From Castellaniella sp. (lineage in GTDB: Bacteria > Pseudomonadota > Gammaproteobacteria > Burkholderiales > Burkholderiaceae_B): a DNA stretch of 64,000 nucleotides. The position numbers were made by a program, and so were the translations under genes. The notes below the pieces were generated by a model. The model ran no database searches. It was not told the DNA's origin and saw nothing but the letters and a program-made list of their open reading frames with translations. The number at the start of each line of letters is the position of its first letter. Position 1 is the first letter of the stretch. This document shows positions 18,409 to 44,031 of this stretch, piece by piece. The stretch is taken from assembly GCA_035707805.1 (NCBI GenBank), contig DASSTS010000050.1, positions 15,492-79,491 on the forward strand, given 5' to 3'.

Positions 18409-19881
18409 ATGGCTTCCACCCCTGATGTCATCCTGCCGCCGGCGCCCCCGAAAAACGGGCGCACGGCCGGCATCGTCCAGTTCGTGCGCCGGCGCATCGC
18501 CGCCCGCGAATGGCAGCCGGGCGCCCGGCTGCCGTCGCTGCGCTCGATGGCGGCCCAGCAAGGGGTTTCCAAGTCCACCGTCGTCGAGGCCTATGACCGG
18601 CTCGCCGCCGACGGCACGATCCAGGCCCGGCCCGGATCCGGCTTCTACGTCGCGGGCCCGCTGGCGCCGCTGACACTGGCCGAGATCGGCCCGCGGCTGG
18701 ACCGCCAGATCGATCCCCTCTGGGTGGCGCGCCAGTCCCTGGACTCGGGCTCCGAGGCTCCGAAACCCGGCTGCGGCTGGCTGCCCGCCGCCTGGATGCC
18801 GGTGGAGGGCATCCGGGCTGCGCTGCGCCAGGCGGCCCGAGCCCCCGACGCGGCCCTGACCGACTATGCGGCATCCCTCGGCCTGCCGGCCCTGCGCGGC
18901 CTGATCGCCCGGCGCCTGCTGCAACACGGCCAGCGCGTCGATCCGCAGCACATCCTGCTCACGGATTCCGGCACCCAGGCGGTGGACCTGCTGTGCCGCT
19001 TCCTGATCAAGCCCGGCGACACGGTCCTGGTCGACGATCCCTGCTACTACAACTTCCTGGCCCTGCTGCGCGCGCACCAGGCGCACATCGTCGGCGTGCC
19101 GCACCGGCCCGACGGCCCTGACATGGCGCTGTTTCGCCGCGCCCTGGCGCAACACCGGCCGCGCCTCTATCTCAGCAATTCGGGCCTGCACAATCCCACC
19201 GGCGCCAGCCTGTCGGCCGCCAAGGCCCGCCGGATCCTGGACCTGGCCGAGGCCCACGACCTGATCCTGATCGAAGACGACATCTTCGGGGATTTCGAGT
19301 CCGAGCCCTCGGCCCGCCTGGCTTCACTGGACGCGGGGGGACGGGTCGTGCGGATCGGCAGCTTCTCCAAGACCTTGTCGGCCAGCCTGCGATGCGGCTA
19401 CCTGGCCACGCGGTCCGACTGGATCGATCCCCTGGCCGACCTGCGCACGGCGACCTCGTTCTCGGGCAACGGACTGAACCAGGCCGTCATCCTGCACCTG
19501 TTGCGCGACAGCGCCTGGCCCCGGCACGTCGGCCTGCTGCGCCAGCGCCTCGCGCAGGACATGGACCGGGCCCTCGGCCTGCTGCGCGGTCTCGGGCTGC
19601 GGCCCTGGCACATTCCCCGGGGCGGCATGTTCCTGTGGTGCCGCCTGCCCGAGGGCGTGGATGGCGCGCGGCTCGCGCGGCTGGCCCTGAGGCAGGGTCT
19701 GGTGCTGGCGCCGGGCAACGTCTTCAGCGTATCCCGCAGCGCGGGCGACATGATGCGGTTCAACGTCTCGCAGATGGGCGATCCCCGGCTGGCGGGGCAA
19801 CTCGCTACACTGATGGCACAGGCCCGCCAAGGCCCGCCGGAGCCGGCGGACGAACCGGCCCTTCTCGGAAACGCCACATGA
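18409..19881 (+). CDS. MocR/GabR family PLP-dependent transcriptional regulator
   Basis: GntR wHTH (RLPSLR...VSKSTVVEAY), aminotransferase domain with HNPTG, EDDIF and SFSKT (PLP Lys). Confidence 0.92.
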   Translation: MASTPDVILPPAPPKNGRTAGIVQFVRRRIAAREWQPGARLPSLRSMAAQQGVSKSTVVEAYDRLAADGTIQARPGSGFYVAGPLAPLTLAEIGPRLDRQIDPLWVARQSLDSGSEAPKPGCGWLPAAWMPVEGIRAALRQAARAPDAALTDYAASLGLPALRGLIARRLLQHGQRVDPQHILLTDSGTQAVDLLCRFLIKPGDTVLVDDPCYYNFLALLRAHQAHIVGVPHRPDGPDMALFRRALAQHRPRLYLSNSGLHNPTGASLSAAKARRILDLAEAHDLILIEDDIFGDFESEPSARLASLDAGGRVVRIGSFSKTLSASLRCGYLATRSDWIDPLADLRTATSFSGNGLNQAVILHLLRDSAWPRHVGLLRQRLAQDMDRALGLLRGLGLRPWHIPRGGMFLWCRLPEGVDGARLARLALRQGLVLAPGNVFSVSRSAGDMMRFNVSQMGDPRLAGQLATLMAQARQGPPEPADEPALLGNAT

Positions 19882-20663
19882 CACAGAACACCCCGGACAC
19901 GACGGCGCAGAACACCTTCCACGGCACCCTGCACGAGCAGATCGAGACTTTGCCGCCCGCATGGCGGTCCACCCTGCAGGCGCCGCACCTGCGGGACATC
20001 CTCGCCCGGCTGGACGGCATGCTGGCCGAGCGGCTGGCGGCCGGCGCGCAGATCTTTCCGCTGCGCCCCTTCCGCGCCCTGATCGAGACGCCCCCCGACG
20101 CCGTGCAGGTCGTCATCGTGGGCCAGGACCCCTACCACGGCCCGAACCAGGCCCAGGGCCTGGCCTTCTCGGTGCCGGACTTCTGCCCGACGCCCCCCAG
20201 CCTGCGCAATATGTTCAAGGAACTGGCGCTGGAATACGGCGCCCCCGAACAGGCGCCGCGCAACAGCCTAGTGCGCTGGGCGCGCCAGGGGGTGCTGCTG
20301 CTGAACACGTCCCTGACCGTGGAGGCCCATCAACCGGCATCCCATGCCCGCAAAGGCTGGGAACACATCACCGACGCGCTGATCATGCGGGTGCTGCGCG
20401 AGCCGCGGCCCAAGGTCCTGCTGCTGTGGGGATCCCATGCCCAGGCGCGCCGCCACCTGCTGGAACTGCAGACGCCGGCGGGGCCGGTGCAGGTGCTGAT
20501 GGCCAACCATCCCTCGCCGCTGTCGGCCCAGCGCCCGCCGCGCCCCTTCATCGGCTGCGGCCATTTCCGCCAGGCGAACGAGTGGCTGCAGGACCAGGGA
20601 GAATCAGGGGTCGACTGGATGCTCGCCCGCACGCCGGCTGCCGCTGCGGGATATGGCGACTGA
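19878..20663 (+). CDS. ung: Uracil-DNA glycosylase, family 1
   Basis: GQDPYH, GLAFS, PPSLRN, GVLLLN and HPSPLS motifs. ATGA overlap with the MocR stop. Confidence 0.95.
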   Translation: MTQNTPDTTAQNTFHGTLHEQIETLPPAWRSTLQAPHLRDILARLDGMLAERLAAGAQIFPLRPFRALIETPPDAVQVVIVGQDPYHGPNQAQGLAFSVPDFCPTPPSLRNMFKELALEYGAPEQAPRNSLVRWARQGVLLLNTSLTVEAHQPASHARKGWEHITDALIMRVLREPRPKVLLLWGSHAQARRHLLELQTPAGPVQVLMANHPSPLSAQRPPRPFIGCGHFRQANEWLQDQGESGVDWMLARTPAAAAGYGD

Positions 20664-39704: not shown

Positions 39705-41009
39705 TTGAACAAGGGCTTCTACATGGTCATGGCCGCGCAGGCGCTGTCGTCTGTCGCGGACAATGCCCTGCTCATCGCCGCCATCGGCCTGATTGCCGAC
39801 CTCAGCGGTCCCGACTGGATGGCCCCCATGATGAAATGGTGGTTCGCGCTGGCCTACGTGGTGCTGGCCGCCTTCGTGGGCGCGTTCGCCGATGCCTTTC
39901 CCAAGGGCAGGGTCATGTTCGCCACGAATGCGCTCAAGACCTGCGGCTGCCTGCTGATGTTCAGCTACGGGGCCTTCGGCGTCAGCCACGGTCACCAGCT
40001 GGTGCTGATCTTCGTCGCCTACACCATCGTCGGCGTCGGCGCCGCCGCTTATTCGCCGGCAAAATACGGCATCGTCACCGAAATGCTGCCGCCCGACCTG
40101 CTGGTCAAGGGCAACAGCTGGATCGAGGGCCTGACGGTGCTGTCGGTCATCATCGGAACGGTGCTGGGCGGCGTGCTGATCAGCCCCGCGGTGTCCGCCT
40201 GGCTGATGTCCTTCGAATGGATCGACGCGCTGGCCGACAACACCGCGCAATGCGCCATCCTGATGATCGGACTGGTCTACGTGACGGCCGCCGTCTGCAA
40301 CCTGCTGATCCCGGACACCCATGCCTATTACCCACGCCAGCAGACCCGCCCGGCCGCGCTGATCCGCAATTTCATCACCTACGTCCGCATCCTCTGGTCC
40401 GACAAACTGGGGCAGATCTCGCTGGCCGTCACCACCTTGTTCTGGGGCGCGGGCGCGACCCTGCAGTTCATCGTCATCGAATGGGGGGCCCAGCACCTGG
40501 GCTACCGCCTGGACCAGGCGTCGGTCCTCATGGGGGTGGCGGCCTTCGGCACCGTCATCGGCGCCATCGTGGCCGGCCGCGTTCCGCTGCGCCGGGCGCT
40601 GTCGGTACTGCCCGTGGGGGTCGCGATGGGGCTGGTGGTGCTGCTGATGCCGCTGGTCTACAAGCCGTTCATGGTCTACTGCCTGCTGCTGCTCATCGGC
40701 GCCCTGTCGGGATTCTTCGTGGTGCCCATGAACGCGCTGCTGCAGCATCGCGGCCACGTGCTGCTGTCGGCGGGCCATTCCATCGCCGTGCAGAACTTCA
40801 ACGAACAGCTCAACATCCTGCTGATGCTGGCGTTCTACAGCCTGATGCTGTGGCTGGGGCTGCCCATCAACGTCATCATCGCGATCTTCGGGATCCTCGT
40901 CGCCTGCCTGATGCTGGTCTTCATCCGCTGGAACCGGCTGAACCACCGCGCCAATCCGGAACTCGAACACCTGATCGGCCAGACGGAACACGGCACCGCG
41001 CTGCGCTGA
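39705..41009 (+). CDS. lplT: Lysophospholipid transporter (MFS)
   Basis: AQALSSVADNAL, YSPAKYG, VVPMNALLQHRG and SIAVQNFNE motifs. Confidence 0.9.
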   Translation: MNKGFYMVMAAQALSSVADNALLIAAIGLIADLSGPDWMAPMMKWWFALAYVVLAAFVGAFADAFPKGRVMFATNALKTCGCLLMFSYGAFGVSHGHQLVLIFVAYTIVGVGAAAYSPAKYGIVTEMLPPDLLVKGNSWIEGLTVLSVIIGTVLGGVLISPAVSAWLMSFEWIDALADNTAQCAILMIGLVYVTAAVCNLLIPDTHAYYPRQQTRPAALIRNFITYVRILWSDKLGQISLAVTTLFWGAGATLQFIVIEWGAQHLGYRLDQASVLMGVAAFGTVIGAIVAGRVPLRRALSVLPVGVAMGLVVLLMPLVYKPFMVYCLLLLIGALSGFFVVPMNALLQHRGHVLLSAGHSIAVQNFNEQLNILLMLAFYSLMLWLGLPINVIIAIFGILVACLMLVFIRWNRLNHRANPELEHLIGQTEHGTALR

Positions 41010-41048
41010 GGCGATCCGCGGCTGCCCGCTGCGCGGGTATGCGCCCGG

Positions 41049-41067
41049 GCGATGCCTGGGGCATCGC
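41049..41067. terminator. Hairpin between convergent lplT and the UDG4-like gene
   Basis: GCGATGCC-TGG-GGCATCGC, a perfect 8-bp stem. No long U tract. Confidence 0.45.
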
Positions 41068-41070
41068 GAT

Positions 41071-41838
41071 TCAAGTGGTGGGGGCGGATTGCCGCACGGC
41101 CTGCGCCAGGCCGGCCAGGTCCCGCCAAGCCTCGGCCTTCAGCGCCGAACGCACCAGCAGGGATGCCGGCTGGTGCGTCACCCAGACTGGAATATCGTCC
41201 CCGGACTCCTGCCGGTATCGCTGCGCGGTCCCGCGCACGGCATCCAGTTCCACCGCGCCGCCCAGGACGGCCTGGGCCGCCACGCGCCCCAGCGCCAGGA
41301 TCCAGCGCGGCTGCAGCAGCGCGATCTCGCGGCGCAGATGCGGCACGCAGGCCGCGATCTCGGCCGCGTCGGGCTCGTGTCCGCCCGGCGCCCGGCATTT
41401 GACGACGTAGGTGCCGAACCGGGATTCGGCGTGCGGCAGGCGGACCGCCGACAGCATGGTCTGCAGCAGGCGCCCCGAATCCCCCTGGAAGGGCTGGCCG
41501 GCGACCTCGTCGTCGATGCCCGGCTGCTCGGCGACGATCAGGTAAAAGGGCCGCTCGGTCTGGCCCGCCCCCGGCACGGCCCGCAGGCGCTGCTGGTGCC
41601 GGCCGCACTGCTGGCAGGCCCGCACCGCGCCGGCCAGCGCGTCCAGGTCGGGACATTGGGCGGGCGGCCGCGCGGTTTCCGGCGCCAGCGCCGGCGCCGT
41701 CACCGGCGCGCGCGCGCGATCGGCGGGATTGCTGGCCGGGGCGGCGGCCACGTCGGGCGCGCGCACGTCCAGCCAATGCAGGTCGACGCCGATCTCCGCC
41801 AGCCAGGCGGCCTGGGCCAGGCGCAGCAGCGGTTTCAT
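41071..41838 (-). CDS. Family-4 uracil-DNA glycosylase-like Fe-S protein, catalytic motifs degenerate
   Basis: CQQC, VVKCR and AAC cysteines; AEQPG, PFQG and LGRVAA motifs. ATGA overlap with tsaB-rimI. Confidence 0.8.
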   Translation of the reverse strand: MKPLLRLAQAAWLAEIGVDLHWLDVRAPDVAAAPASNPADRARAPVTAPALAPETARPPAQCPDLDALAGAVRACQQCGRHQQRLRAVPGAGQTERPFYLIVAEQPGIDDEVAGQPFQGDSGRLLQTMLSAVRLPHAESRFGTYVVKCRAPGGHEPDAAEIAACVPHLRREIALLQPRWILALGRVAAQAVLGGAVELDAVRGTAQRYRQESGDDIPVWVTHQPASLLVRSALKAEAWRDLAGLAQAVRQSAPTT

Positions 41839-43079
41839 GTCGGGGACTCCTGGAGCGCCAGCGTCATGACCCAGGCGTCTTCGCGCGCCCCGTGCGCGGC
41901 CGGGTAATAGCCGCGGCGCAGGCCCAGCTGGCGGAATCCGTGGCGTTGGTAGAACTGGACGGCCTGGGTATTGCTGGGCCGCACCTCCAGGGTCAGCGCC
42001 GGCAGGCCGACTTGGCGGCAATGGGCCACGCACTGGCGCAGCAGCTCGGCTCCCACGCCCTGGCGCTGGCTGTCCGGGCGCACGCCGATGACCAGCAGGT
42101 GTGCCATGTCGGGCGTATCCATGACCAGGGCGAAGCCCAGCATCGCGCCCAGGCGGCGCACCACCCAGCCCCGGTATCCCGCCGCCACCCCGTCGGCGAA
42201 ATTCCCGCGGGTCCAGGGAAAAGACTGGACCTGCCGCTCGATGGCGGCCACCTCGTCCACATCGGACATGCCCATGTCGTGGATCGACCAGCGCGCCGCA
42301 TCGGCCTGCGGATTGCCGCCCAGGCCTTGAGCGCGCTCGACGGTGGTGTAGGCGACCTTGTCGCGCACGTACGCGGGCGCGGCCAGCGCGGCATCCAGGC
42401 CCCGTCCATGCCGCCAGTCCCGGGCGGCCAGGCGCGCCACGGTGGCGGCGTGCGCGCGCACCGGTCCGTCACCGTCCACCGGAGGACAGGCCGCCCCCAG
42501 CGCCTCGAGCTCGTCGGCCAGACCGGGAAACGCCGTCAGCGCATCGCCGTGGACCGACCAGCCGCCTCCCGCGCGCATGGCCCAGTCCGCGGATGCCTCC
42601 GCCACCCAGGCAGCGACATCGTCCCTGCCCAGCAGGGCCGGCGCCTGCAGCGTGGTCCAGTCTTCGCCCGCGCACAGGTAGGCGGCCACGTACAGTTCCT
42701 GCATGCGGGCGTCCTGCGCCACGACGTGCACGCCCGCCGGGTCCTGGCCGGCCTGCTCGACGGCGATCGCGCACAGCGAATCCACCGGCAGGACGGGAAT
42801 CTCCAGCGCGACGGCCAGGCCCTGGGCGACGCCGCAGGCGACCCGCAGGCCCGTGAATCCGCCCGGCCCCTGGCCGAAGGCGATCGCCGAGAGGTCCGCC
42901 CGCCCCACGCCGGCCTGGTCCAGCAGGCGCTGGGCCAGCGGCAGGATCTGCTCGGCGTGCTCCTGGCGCCCCTCGTGCTGCGCGGCGACGAGCGTCACGC
43001 GGCCGCCCGCCTGCGACAGCAGCGCGACACTGCACAATGTGCTTGAAGTTTCAAACGCAAGAATGTGAAAATCGTCCAT
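41835..43079 (-). CDS. tsaB-rimI: TsaB (t6A biosynthesis)-RimI (GNAT acetyltransferase) fusion
   Basis: N-terminal ETSS, GPGGFTGLR, DARMQE and PAYVR; C-terminal FPWT, QRQGVG, LEVRPSN and RRGYY...EDA, all in one ORF. Confidence 0.9.
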   Translation of the reverse strand: MDDFHILAFETSSTLCSVALLSQAGGRVTLVAAQHEGRQEHAEQILPLAQRLLDQAGVGRADLSAIAFGQGPGGFTGLRVACGVAQGLAVALEIPVLPVDSLCAIAVEQAGQDPAGVHVVAQDARMQELYVAAYLCAGEDWTTLQAPALLGRDDVAAWVAEASADWAMRAGGGWSVHGDALTAFPGLADELEALGAACPPVDGDGPVRAHAATVARLAARDWRHGRGLDAALAAPAYVRDKVAYTTVERAQGLGGNPQADAARWSIHDMGMSDVDEVAAIERQVQSFPWTRGNFADGVAAGYRGWVVRRLGAMLGFALVMDTPDMAHLLVIGVRPDSQRQGVGAELLRQCVAHCRQVGLPALTLEVRPSNTQAVQFYQRHGFRQLGLRRGYYPAAHGAREDAWVMTLALQESPT

Positions 43080-43296
43080 GGCGCGATCATTTTAATGGAG
43101 GAGTTCCCCCAGCCGGATCCCGAGACACGCGCCGTCTCCCGATCGGTCCACAAGCCGGCGCCCCACGCGGCAAACGGCCGTCTCCACGCCCAGGGGCGCA
43201 GACCCGGAGACGGCCGTTCGACAACCAAACGCTTATTGTGTAATTTGTTGTGATAAACCGCTGGTGCAGCTTTCCCGACCCTGTTACATTTTCCTC

Positions 43297-44031
43297 ATGA
43301 ACACACATAACCAGACCCTCATCCGCAAGATCCTGATCGTCGACGACGATCCGCGCTTGCGCGACCTGTTGCGGCGTTATCTGTCCGAGCAGGGCTTCAA
43401 TGTCTACGTCGCGGAAGACGCGAAGGAAATGGCCAAGCTCTGGCAACGCGAGCATTTCGACCTGCTGGTGCTCGACCTCATGCTGCCGGGCGAAGACGGG
43501 CTGTCGATCTGCCGCCGGCTGCGGGGCAACCACGACAACACCCCCATCATCATGCTCACCGCCAAGGCCGAGGAGATCGACCGGATCGTGGGCCTGGAAA
43601 TGGGCGCTGACGATTATCTGACAAAACCCTTCAACCCCCGCGAGCTGCTGGCGCGCGTCAACGCCATCCTGCGCCGGCGCGGCACCGAAGAACACCCCGG
43701 CGCCCCCAGCCAGGAAAACGAATCCATCGAGTTCGGCCCGTACGTGCTCAATCTGTCCACGCGCACCCTGATGAAAAGCGGCGAATCCGTGCCCATCACC
43801 ACGGGCGAGTTTTCCGTGCTCAAGGTCTTCGCCCGCCACCCCAAGGTCCCGCTGTCGCGCGACAAGCTCATGGAACTCGCCCGGGGACGCGAATACGAGG
43901 CCTTCGACCGCAGTCTCGACGTGCAGATCTCGCGCCTGCGCAAGCTCATCGAACCCAACCCGTCCAAGCCGGTGTTCATCCAGACGGTGTGGGGGCTGGG
44001 CTATGTCTTCGTGCCCGACGGCGGCCAATAA
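43297..44031 (+). CDS. risA: OmpR-family response regulator RisA
   Basis: KILIVDDDPRLRDLLRRYL, DLMLPGEDG, DRSLDVQISRLRK and IQTVWGLGY; Bordetella-like context. Confidence 0.88.
   Translation: MNTHNQTLIRKILIVDDDPRLRDLLRRYLSEQGFNVYVAEDAKEMAKLWQREHFDLLVLDLMLPGEDGLSICRRLRGNHDNTPIIMLTAKAEEIDRIVGLEMGADDYLTKPFNPRELLARVNAILRRRGTEEHPGAPSQENESIEFGPYVLNLSTRTLMKSGESVPITTGEFSVLKVFARHPKVPLSRDKLMELARGREYEAFDRSLDVQISRLRKLIEPNPSKPVFIQTVWGLGYVFVPDGGQ

Follow-up and report, generated by a model that had tools for sequence, protein, structure and literature searches.

A rimI-adjacent protein of Castellaniella with a decayed family-4 uracil-DNA glycosylase domain, proposed as an equivalent of the replisome subunit psi

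Immediately downstream of a tsaB-rimI fusion gene, Castellaniella sp. carries a reading frame whose product (P0001) joins a short N-terminal peptide, reminiscent of that of psi (HolD), to a family-4 uracil-DNA glycosylase (UDG4) domain with altered motifs. Is this protein a glycosylase, a damage sensor, or a psi subunit that current models do not recognize? The partner of psi, chi (HolC), is present in alpha-, beta-, and gammaproteobacteria, and psi is recognizable only in some gammaproteobacteria, as has been noted in reviews since 2004-2012 (PMC3290774, PMC3197488). Whether chi works alone without psi was left open (Robinson et al. 2012, PMC3290774; El Houry Mignan et al. 2011, PMC3197488). 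No paper linking psi with UDG4 was found in the open full-text literature searched (subscription journals were not covered). Coordinates given below without a locus name refer to the window, that is, the whole 64,000-nucleotide stretch of DNA that was analyzed.

Gene layout and protein architecture

The P0001 gene, its parts, and the surrounding features were placed as follows.

41071..41838, minus strand: coding sequence of the psi-like decayed family-4 UDG P0001, 255 aa, stop codon included (open reading frame and translation)
41761..41838, minus strand: conserved N-terminal peptide, residues 1-26, pattern Q-x-A-W-L-A-E-I-G-V-D-x-H-W; proposed DnaX-collar docking peptide
41656..41760, minus strand: Ala/Pro-rich flexible linker, residues 27-61 (35 aa), pLDDT 57-70
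41074..41655, minus strand: family-4 UDG-fold domain, residues 62-255 (residue table; alignments to T. thermophilus UDG and UdgX)
41847..41851, minus strand: Shine-Dalgarno sequence AGGAG, 8 nt before the ATG and within the 3' end of tsaB-rimI (read from the sequence)
41835..43079, minus strand: tsaB-rimI fusion, 414 aa, upstream of P0001 (TsaB and RimI matches in a single open reading frame)
19878-20663, plus strand: family-1 Ung with the canonical motifs GQDPYH and HPSPLS

The start codon of P0001 is the ATG at 41838, which shares an ATGA overlap with the TGA of tsaB-rimI; translational coupling of the two genes is inferred from this overlap, that is, from sequence alone. The upstream frame matched both TsaB (TIGR03725, E 1.8e-52) and RimI (TIGR01575, E 1.6e-31). 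The initial annotation had named rimI as the neighbor, which held in part, the actual neighbor being this 414-aa fusion; its normal ung at 19878 was confirmed as the family-1 enzyme listed above, and no further gene of the UDG superfamily was found in the assembly. Downstream of the P0001 gene lies a convergent MFS transporter gene, and a scan of positions 40800-43400 for promoters and terminators found none.

P0001 matched the Pfam UDG family (PF03167) at E 6e-22 and scored 123.3 bits against the family-4 model TIGR00758, slightly below the cut-off of 125.3. Its AlphaFold (AF2) model had a mean pLDDT of 91, and the closest structures were solved family-4 UDGs (Foldseek E 7e-19, identity about 30%), with 186 residues of T. 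maritima UDG4 (1L9G) aligned by VIA at Z 27.4. The solved enzymes align only from about residue 60 of the model onward, and the peptide and linker of P0001 are therefore additions to the family-4 fold. The core of the peptide comprises residues 11-22. Among Castellaniella congeners the peptide showed a mean column identity of 83%, and the linker varied in length from 35 to 83 aa, with Ala and Pro together making up 50% of it.

Selection was examined in 10 Castellaniella genomes with an extracted coding sequence, the source genome included. The dN/dS ratio was 0.24 for the peptide, 0.23 for the domain, and about 0.23 for the whole gene, showing that peptide and domain are both under purifying selection and that the gene as a whole is not decaying. 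Pseudogene status was ruled out on the same set of genomes, in all of which the frame is intact (dN/dS 0.23).

State of the active site

P0001 keeps its four Fe-S cysteines (C75, C78, C148, and C164), which line up with those of the cluster in every intact ortholog, and it also retains the stacking Phe117 and the Glu of motif A. Motif A (residues 103-107) reads AEQPG, compared with GE(A/G)PG in family 4 (motif definition and residue roles in uracil binding in PMC10359453) and with GEQPG or GEQPS in congeners. The TN(V)VKC motif reads TYVVKC (143-148), where the uracil hydrogen-bonding Asn (Tth N80/UdgX N91) is replaced by Y144; a second Asn (Tth N89) is replaced by G153, and the motif B His (Tth H155/UdgX H178) by Q223, the H-P of motif B reading Q-P (THQPAS, 221-226). 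Residues for catalysis and uracil binding have thus been lost in P0001. Within the genus, the Asn position is occupied by Tyr or His and the motif B His position by Gln, Pro, or Leu, the variation that a pocket released from selection would show.

The domain has also diverged faster in Castellaniella than in its relatives. Its identity to the domains of other Burkholderiales families is 40%, compared with 59% among those families themselves, and P0001 scores 123 bits against TIGR00758, compared with 191-222 bits for intact orthologs. The loss of glycosylase activity is inferred from these changes, there being no activity data. Uracil repair in this genome could be covered by the family-1 Ung, and the retained cysteines, Phe117, and motif A Glu leave room for some residual or altered DNA-directed activity.

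The descriptive claims of the initial annotation all held when checked against the sequence and alignments: N-terminal peptide, Ala/Pro linker, four Fe-S cysteines, AEQPG, TYVVKC, and THQP. Its suggestion that the protein is no longer a working glycosylase is supported by the loss of the uracil-holding residues, with the qualification that active-site decay is confined to Castellaniella and a few other lineages, the remaining Burkholderiales having all motifs. At four of the class-level rimI loci described below (L046, L056, L096, and L081), motif A or the Asn was found partly decayed with the cysteines kept. In a Castellaniella-like homolog from a JGI metagenome (P0062), all four Fe-S cysteines are gone and the N-terminal peptide is retained, a further step of decay. 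The loss of enzyme function probably began several times, in Castellaniella and in other gammaproteobacterial lineages.

Relationship to psi and distribution in relatives

The names of P0001 homologs place the source organism in Castellaniella (Alcaligenaceae, Burkholderiales). A UDG4-like ortholog was found in 29 of 30 relatives. The gene order tsaB, rimI, UDG4-like ortholog was seen in all ten other Burkholderiales families with upstream sequence (10/10), and a tsaB-rimI fusion followed by the psi-like gene in 12 Castellaniella relatives; tsaB and rimI are separate, overlapping genes in the ten families and are fused in Castellaniella. All Burkholderiales orthologs from outside Castellaniella carried every UDG4 motif, together with an N-terminal peptide of the form R-R-x-x-x-L-x-E-[LM]-G-L-x-P-x-W-x-x-R.

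At the level of the class, the rimI neighborhoods of 60 GTDB Gammaproteobacteria families with the best RimI matches were taken. A UDG4-like open reading frame adjoined rimI in 54 of the 60, about 47 of these 54 kept all motifs, and two scored 217-222 bits against TIGR00758. Most of the class-level UDG4-like frames begin with a peptide of the form R-x-x-Y-L-x-A-M-G-I-x-x-W-x-x-R, and the combination of psi peptide and UDG4 is the commonest arrangement beside rimI in GTDB Gammaproteobacteria, not a betaproteobacterial oddity. The public names encountered for these proteins were without exception 'uracil-DNA glycosylase' or 'DNA polymerase'. Their position beside rimI is the slot taken by holD in E. 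coli, where holD overlaps or adjoins rimI. The claim that holD adjoins rimI in gammaproteobacteria was accordingly upheld for E. coli; the order at the P0001 locus (rimI, then the UDG-like gene) is the reverse.

In 20 genomes from other classes of the phylum, probably alphaproteobacterial (L103-L122), UDG4 homologs were found that do not lie beside rimI. Their N-terminal motif differs (L-L-x-[FWY]-[YW]-x-x-x-G-[VAI]-[DE] ... P-x-[DN]-R, followed by a Pro/Ala linker), and it was not detected by the psi-peptide HMM. It is possible that this motif is the alphaproteobacterial counterpart of the docking peptide.

When an HMM built only from Pfam-type psi N-termini was run against 1,715 open reading frames, it matched 27 UDG4 frames at E<=0.01 and no unrelated frame. 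The N-terminus of an intact UDG4 (P0231) was nearly identical to that of a protein annotated as psi (P0225), and the P0001 peptide aligns with the N-termini of psi and UDG4-psi proteins. From these comparisons it is inferred, without binding data, that many class-level UDG4-like frames begin with the type of peptide by which E. coli psi attaches to the clamp loader. The peptides of Castellaniella were not detected by the HMMs of psi N-termini or of gammaproteobacterial UDG4 N-peptides (E>1), those of other Burkholderiales gave marginal values against the psi-peptide HMMs (E 0.019 to 0.8), and a 28-position profile of the Burkholderiales N-peptide did not retrieve psi from the PDB, where its top matches were unrelated proteins at E about 1. 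The match of the P0001 N-terminus to E. coli psi is insignificant by itself; the case rests on orthology and on intermediate sequences. The HolD-like N-terminus of the initial annotation therefore held in part: the conserved peptide is real, its own match to E. coli psi is not significant.

The relationship extends to the globular domain. An alignment of five PF03603-positive psi proteins matched the UDG4-like family over 106 columns of this domain (hhalign 97.7%, E 1.4e-12), and a 24-member psi alignment matched it at 96.7% and E 3.5e-10. A search of the psi profile against 5.8 billion proteins retrieved PF03167 as well as PF03603 proteins; those of PF03167, an Achromobacter 'uracil-DNA glycosylase' among them, had E 1.6e-11 to 4e-6. 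An HMM of the UDG4-psi proteins matched the small psi proteins collinearly (E 2e-13 to 4e-9). When a psi protein was modeled with AlphaFold (core pLDDT about 90), E. coli psi was the top PDB match of the model, Foldseek ranks 4-35 were held almost exclusively by UdgX and Thermus UDG4, and VIA placed T. maritima UDG4 at rank 2 of 48,161 chains (Z 8.1, 99 residues). The P0001 model could be aligned with 100 of the 102 residues of E. coli psi at Z 6.0. As a diagnostic on its own this value was rejected, since Argonaute MID and further Rossmann-like folds reach it equally; the structural Z scores obtained against psi fall within the generic Rossmann-like range.

The homology does not extend to a direct match with E. 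coli psi. As a single sequence, E. coli psi aligned with the family profile through its N-peptide only (E 0.019, probability 2.4%), and the UDG4-psi HMM did not detect it. A strict clade of 14 derived psi proteins, with the peptide removed, matched the family at E 0.012 over 42 columns; the strong signal thus depends on the Pfam-positive small psi proteins as intermediates, and the argument is transitive. Through these intermediates, the Pfam-positive psi proteins are homologous to the UDG4-like family over the globular domain. The initial annotation had stated a resemblance between the psi and UDG/MUG folds.

The distribution of chi and psi was considered next to these results. Chi (PF04364) was present in 30/30 relatives, in 18/18 congeners, and in 120 of 151 class-level families. 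Psi above the PF03603 cut-off was found in none of 31 genomes (this one and its 30 relatives) and in merely 3 of the 151 families, the PF03603 and TIGR00664 models being narrow; the class-level tallies include two unpublished genomes (G067 and G145), from which no sequence was taken and on which no claim depends. P0001 itself did not match PF03603 or TIGR00664 at E<=1. Faint PF03603 matches in relatives (E 0.02-0.7), for example in an ABC ATPase frame, were dismissed as noise. The pattern of holC without a separate holD, raised by the initial annotation, was thereby borne out for the relatives, and no separate PF03603 psi was found in this genome.

In the source assembly (88% complete, 53 contigs), chi was not found with either the family model or a congener's protein as query. 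PepA and the 6.5-kb pepA-holC region of a congener (L123) were not found either, only an unidentified stretch of about 80 bp of that region matching the assembly. Because the neighboring housekeeping gene pepA is missing too, the absence of chi is probably due to an assembly gap.

Reduced forms of psi were also seen. The five PF03603-positive proteins are small psi proteins of 147-199 aa, three of them encoded directly upstream of rimI. The sole relative without a UDG4 hit, a 1.9-Mb Burkholderiales genome (G019), has chi and encodes in its tsaB-rimI slot a 154-aa protein (L042:1046-1510, minus strand) with a psi-type N-peptide and a shrunken, collinear UDG4 remnant. No Pfam or NCBIfam model matched this protein, which looks like an unannotated mini-psi that probably arose independently of enterobacterial psi. 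In a 1.5-Mb genome (G142) in which chi was not found, a small psi-like protein of about 150 aa is encoded upstream of rimI (L095:1150-1674, plus strand) and retains a Y-H-P remnant of motif B. These forms make up a series of intact UDG4, the Castellaniella state, cysteine-less proteins such as P0062, and the small psi proteins.

Proposed role, rival explanations, and known systems

The architecture, orthology, and synteny of the P0001 family are shown by the results above. As the best explanation, we consider P0001 to be, more likely than not, the equivalent of the 'missing' psi with a decayed glycosylase activity; binding to DnaX and chi and the loss of activity are inferred. The contacts with DnaX and chi rest on homology and architecture only, without binding data or a complex prediction. 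The first 26 or so residues of E. coli psi dock on the DnaX collar. Residues 1-26 of P0001 would bind the DnaX (tau/gamma) trimer at its collar in the same way, the 35-aa Ala/Pro linker would serve as a flexible tether, and the Fe-S UDG-fold domain, homologous to the globular domain of psi, would hold chi, which in turn binds SSB. In Castellaniella, where the uracil-binding residues are lost and the peptide, the fold, and the Fe-S site are under purifying selection, likely just the structural role in the replisome remains. In most relatives the ortholog looks, from its intact motifs, like a working family-4 UDG and therefore probably does both jobs. The initial proposal of an unrecognized betaproteobacterial psi is supported in this form, DnaX/HolC binding being inferred, with the correction that the architecture is class-wide and not betaproteobacterial only.

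A bolder reading, which we hold to be only slightly more likely right than wrong, covers Gammaproteobacteria in the GTDB sense, Burkholderiales included. According to it, classical psi would be a decayed family-4 UDG, and most chi-bearing Gammaproteobacteria would use an intact, peptide-bearing Fe-S UDG4 as their psi. In those bacteria, uracil excision would be physically built into the clamp loader. Castellaniella, the genome with the mini-psi (G019), and the enterobacterial lineage would be independent stages in the loss of enzyme function.

One alternative, unlikely in our view, makes P0001 a damage sensor or DNA binder tethered to the replisome: the N-peptide would bring it to the clamp loader, and the Fe-S UDG fold would bind uracil, AP sites, or other lesions without turnover and would have no role in holding chi. 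In its favor are the retained Fe-S cysteines, stacking Phe117, and motif A Glu, the purifying selection on the domain, and the resemblance of motif A to GEQPG in UdgX, a relative of UDG4 that binds instead of turning over. However, the uracil hydrogen-bonding residues are gone (Asn to Tyr, His to Gln), and a conserved base pocket is hard to reconcile with their variation among congeners (Tyr/His and Gln/Pro/Leu). The R-loop of UdgX is absent and the TIGR03914 score is 98.6 against a cut-off of 189.95. A sensor would also leave unexplained why chi occurs without psi in 30/30 relatives and why a mini-psi occupies the same slot.

A DNA glycosylase that still works, with changed substrate specificity or catalysis and with a peptide that only brings it to replication forks or to some other partner, is likewise improbable. 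It would agree with the intact fold (pLDDT 91) with its Fe-S site, motif A Glu, and Phe117, with the dN/dS of 0.23, and with the apparently full activity of most orthologs (all motifs, TIGR00758 191-222 bits). Against it, three positions required for uracil excision in family 4 carry other residues (Tth N80/UdgX N91, Tth N89, and Tth H155/UdgX H178), the replacements are not the same among congeners, the TIGR00758 score is below the family cut-off, divergence is accelerated, and a family-1 Ung is also present.

The weakest alternative, that the peptide is a lineage-specific extension serving stability or a different partner and unrelated to the clamp loader, its psi likeness being due to chance and the chi of Burkholderiales working without psi, can point to the failure of psi-peptide HMMs to detect the P0001 peptide, to the absence of psi among the PDB matches of the short profile, and to the other N-motif of other-class UDG4s that are not beside rimI, but we regard it as very unlikely since intermediate sequences link the peptides, the psi-only HMM picked out UDG4 N-termini specifically in the class sample (27 hits, zero false positives), the extreme N-terminal position and the linker are the same and the domain is homologous, and the peptide is conserved as much as the domain.

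If the psi reading of P0001 and its family is true, it names the missing psi subunit in most chi-bearing, psi-less bacteria, traces the evolution of psi back to a repair enzyme, predicts a direct coupling of uracil removal to the replisome in many proteobacteria, and corrects thousands of database names. The Castellaniella protein would be a natural separation-of-function variant; as it keeps the peptide and fold and has lost the catalytic residues, the idea can be tested directly. In P. aeruginosa, psi is essential (PMC8879598), and the interface may therefore be of interest as a drug target.

Among known systems, P0001 shares with psi (HolD; PF03603, TIGR00664; PDB 1EM8 and 3SXU, peptide in 3GLI and 8GIY) the succession of N-terminal peptide, disordered linker, and alpha/beta domain. 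The domain is homologous at the family level, UDG4 structures being the nearest to psi outside psi itself; the gene adjoins rimI, and the family is found in genomes with chi but without a recognizable psi. Unlike E. coli psi, P0001 is about twice as large, with the four Fe-S cysteines and the greater part of the UDG4 core preserved; its gene lies downstream of rimI instead of upstream, its N-peptide has drifted from the psi consensus, and no psi model matches it.

With family-4 UDG (UdgA; TIGR00758; T. thermophilus 1UI0, T. maritima 1L9G, S. tokodaii 4ZBX), P0001 has the fold and the Fe-S site in common. It differs in an additional 60-residue N-terminal peptide and linker, absent from the solved enzymes, in the AEQPG form of motif A, in the replacement of the uracil-contacting Asn, His, and second Asn, and in a score slightly below the cut-off. 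UdgX of M. smegmatis (TIGR03914) is also a UDG4-derived Fe-S protein and likewise has Gln as the third residue of motif A (GEQPG), but it retains both the Asn and the His missing from P0001. Membership of P0001 in this group was rejected, the R-loop K-R-R-I-H and its covalently bonding His being absent (the loop reads A-P-G-G-H-E-P) and the TIGR03914 score being 98.6 bits against 189.95.

The psi of P. aeruginosa (PA4679, 278 aa) is essential and was missed by ordinary homology search (PMC8879598, PMC3197488). It differs from P0001 in its reported binding of single-stranded DNA through the N-terminus, and no relationship to UDG has been reported for it. It resembles P0001 in its length for a psi, in a disordered N-terminal part (about 85 residues), and in a core that exceeds the E. 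coli one in size.
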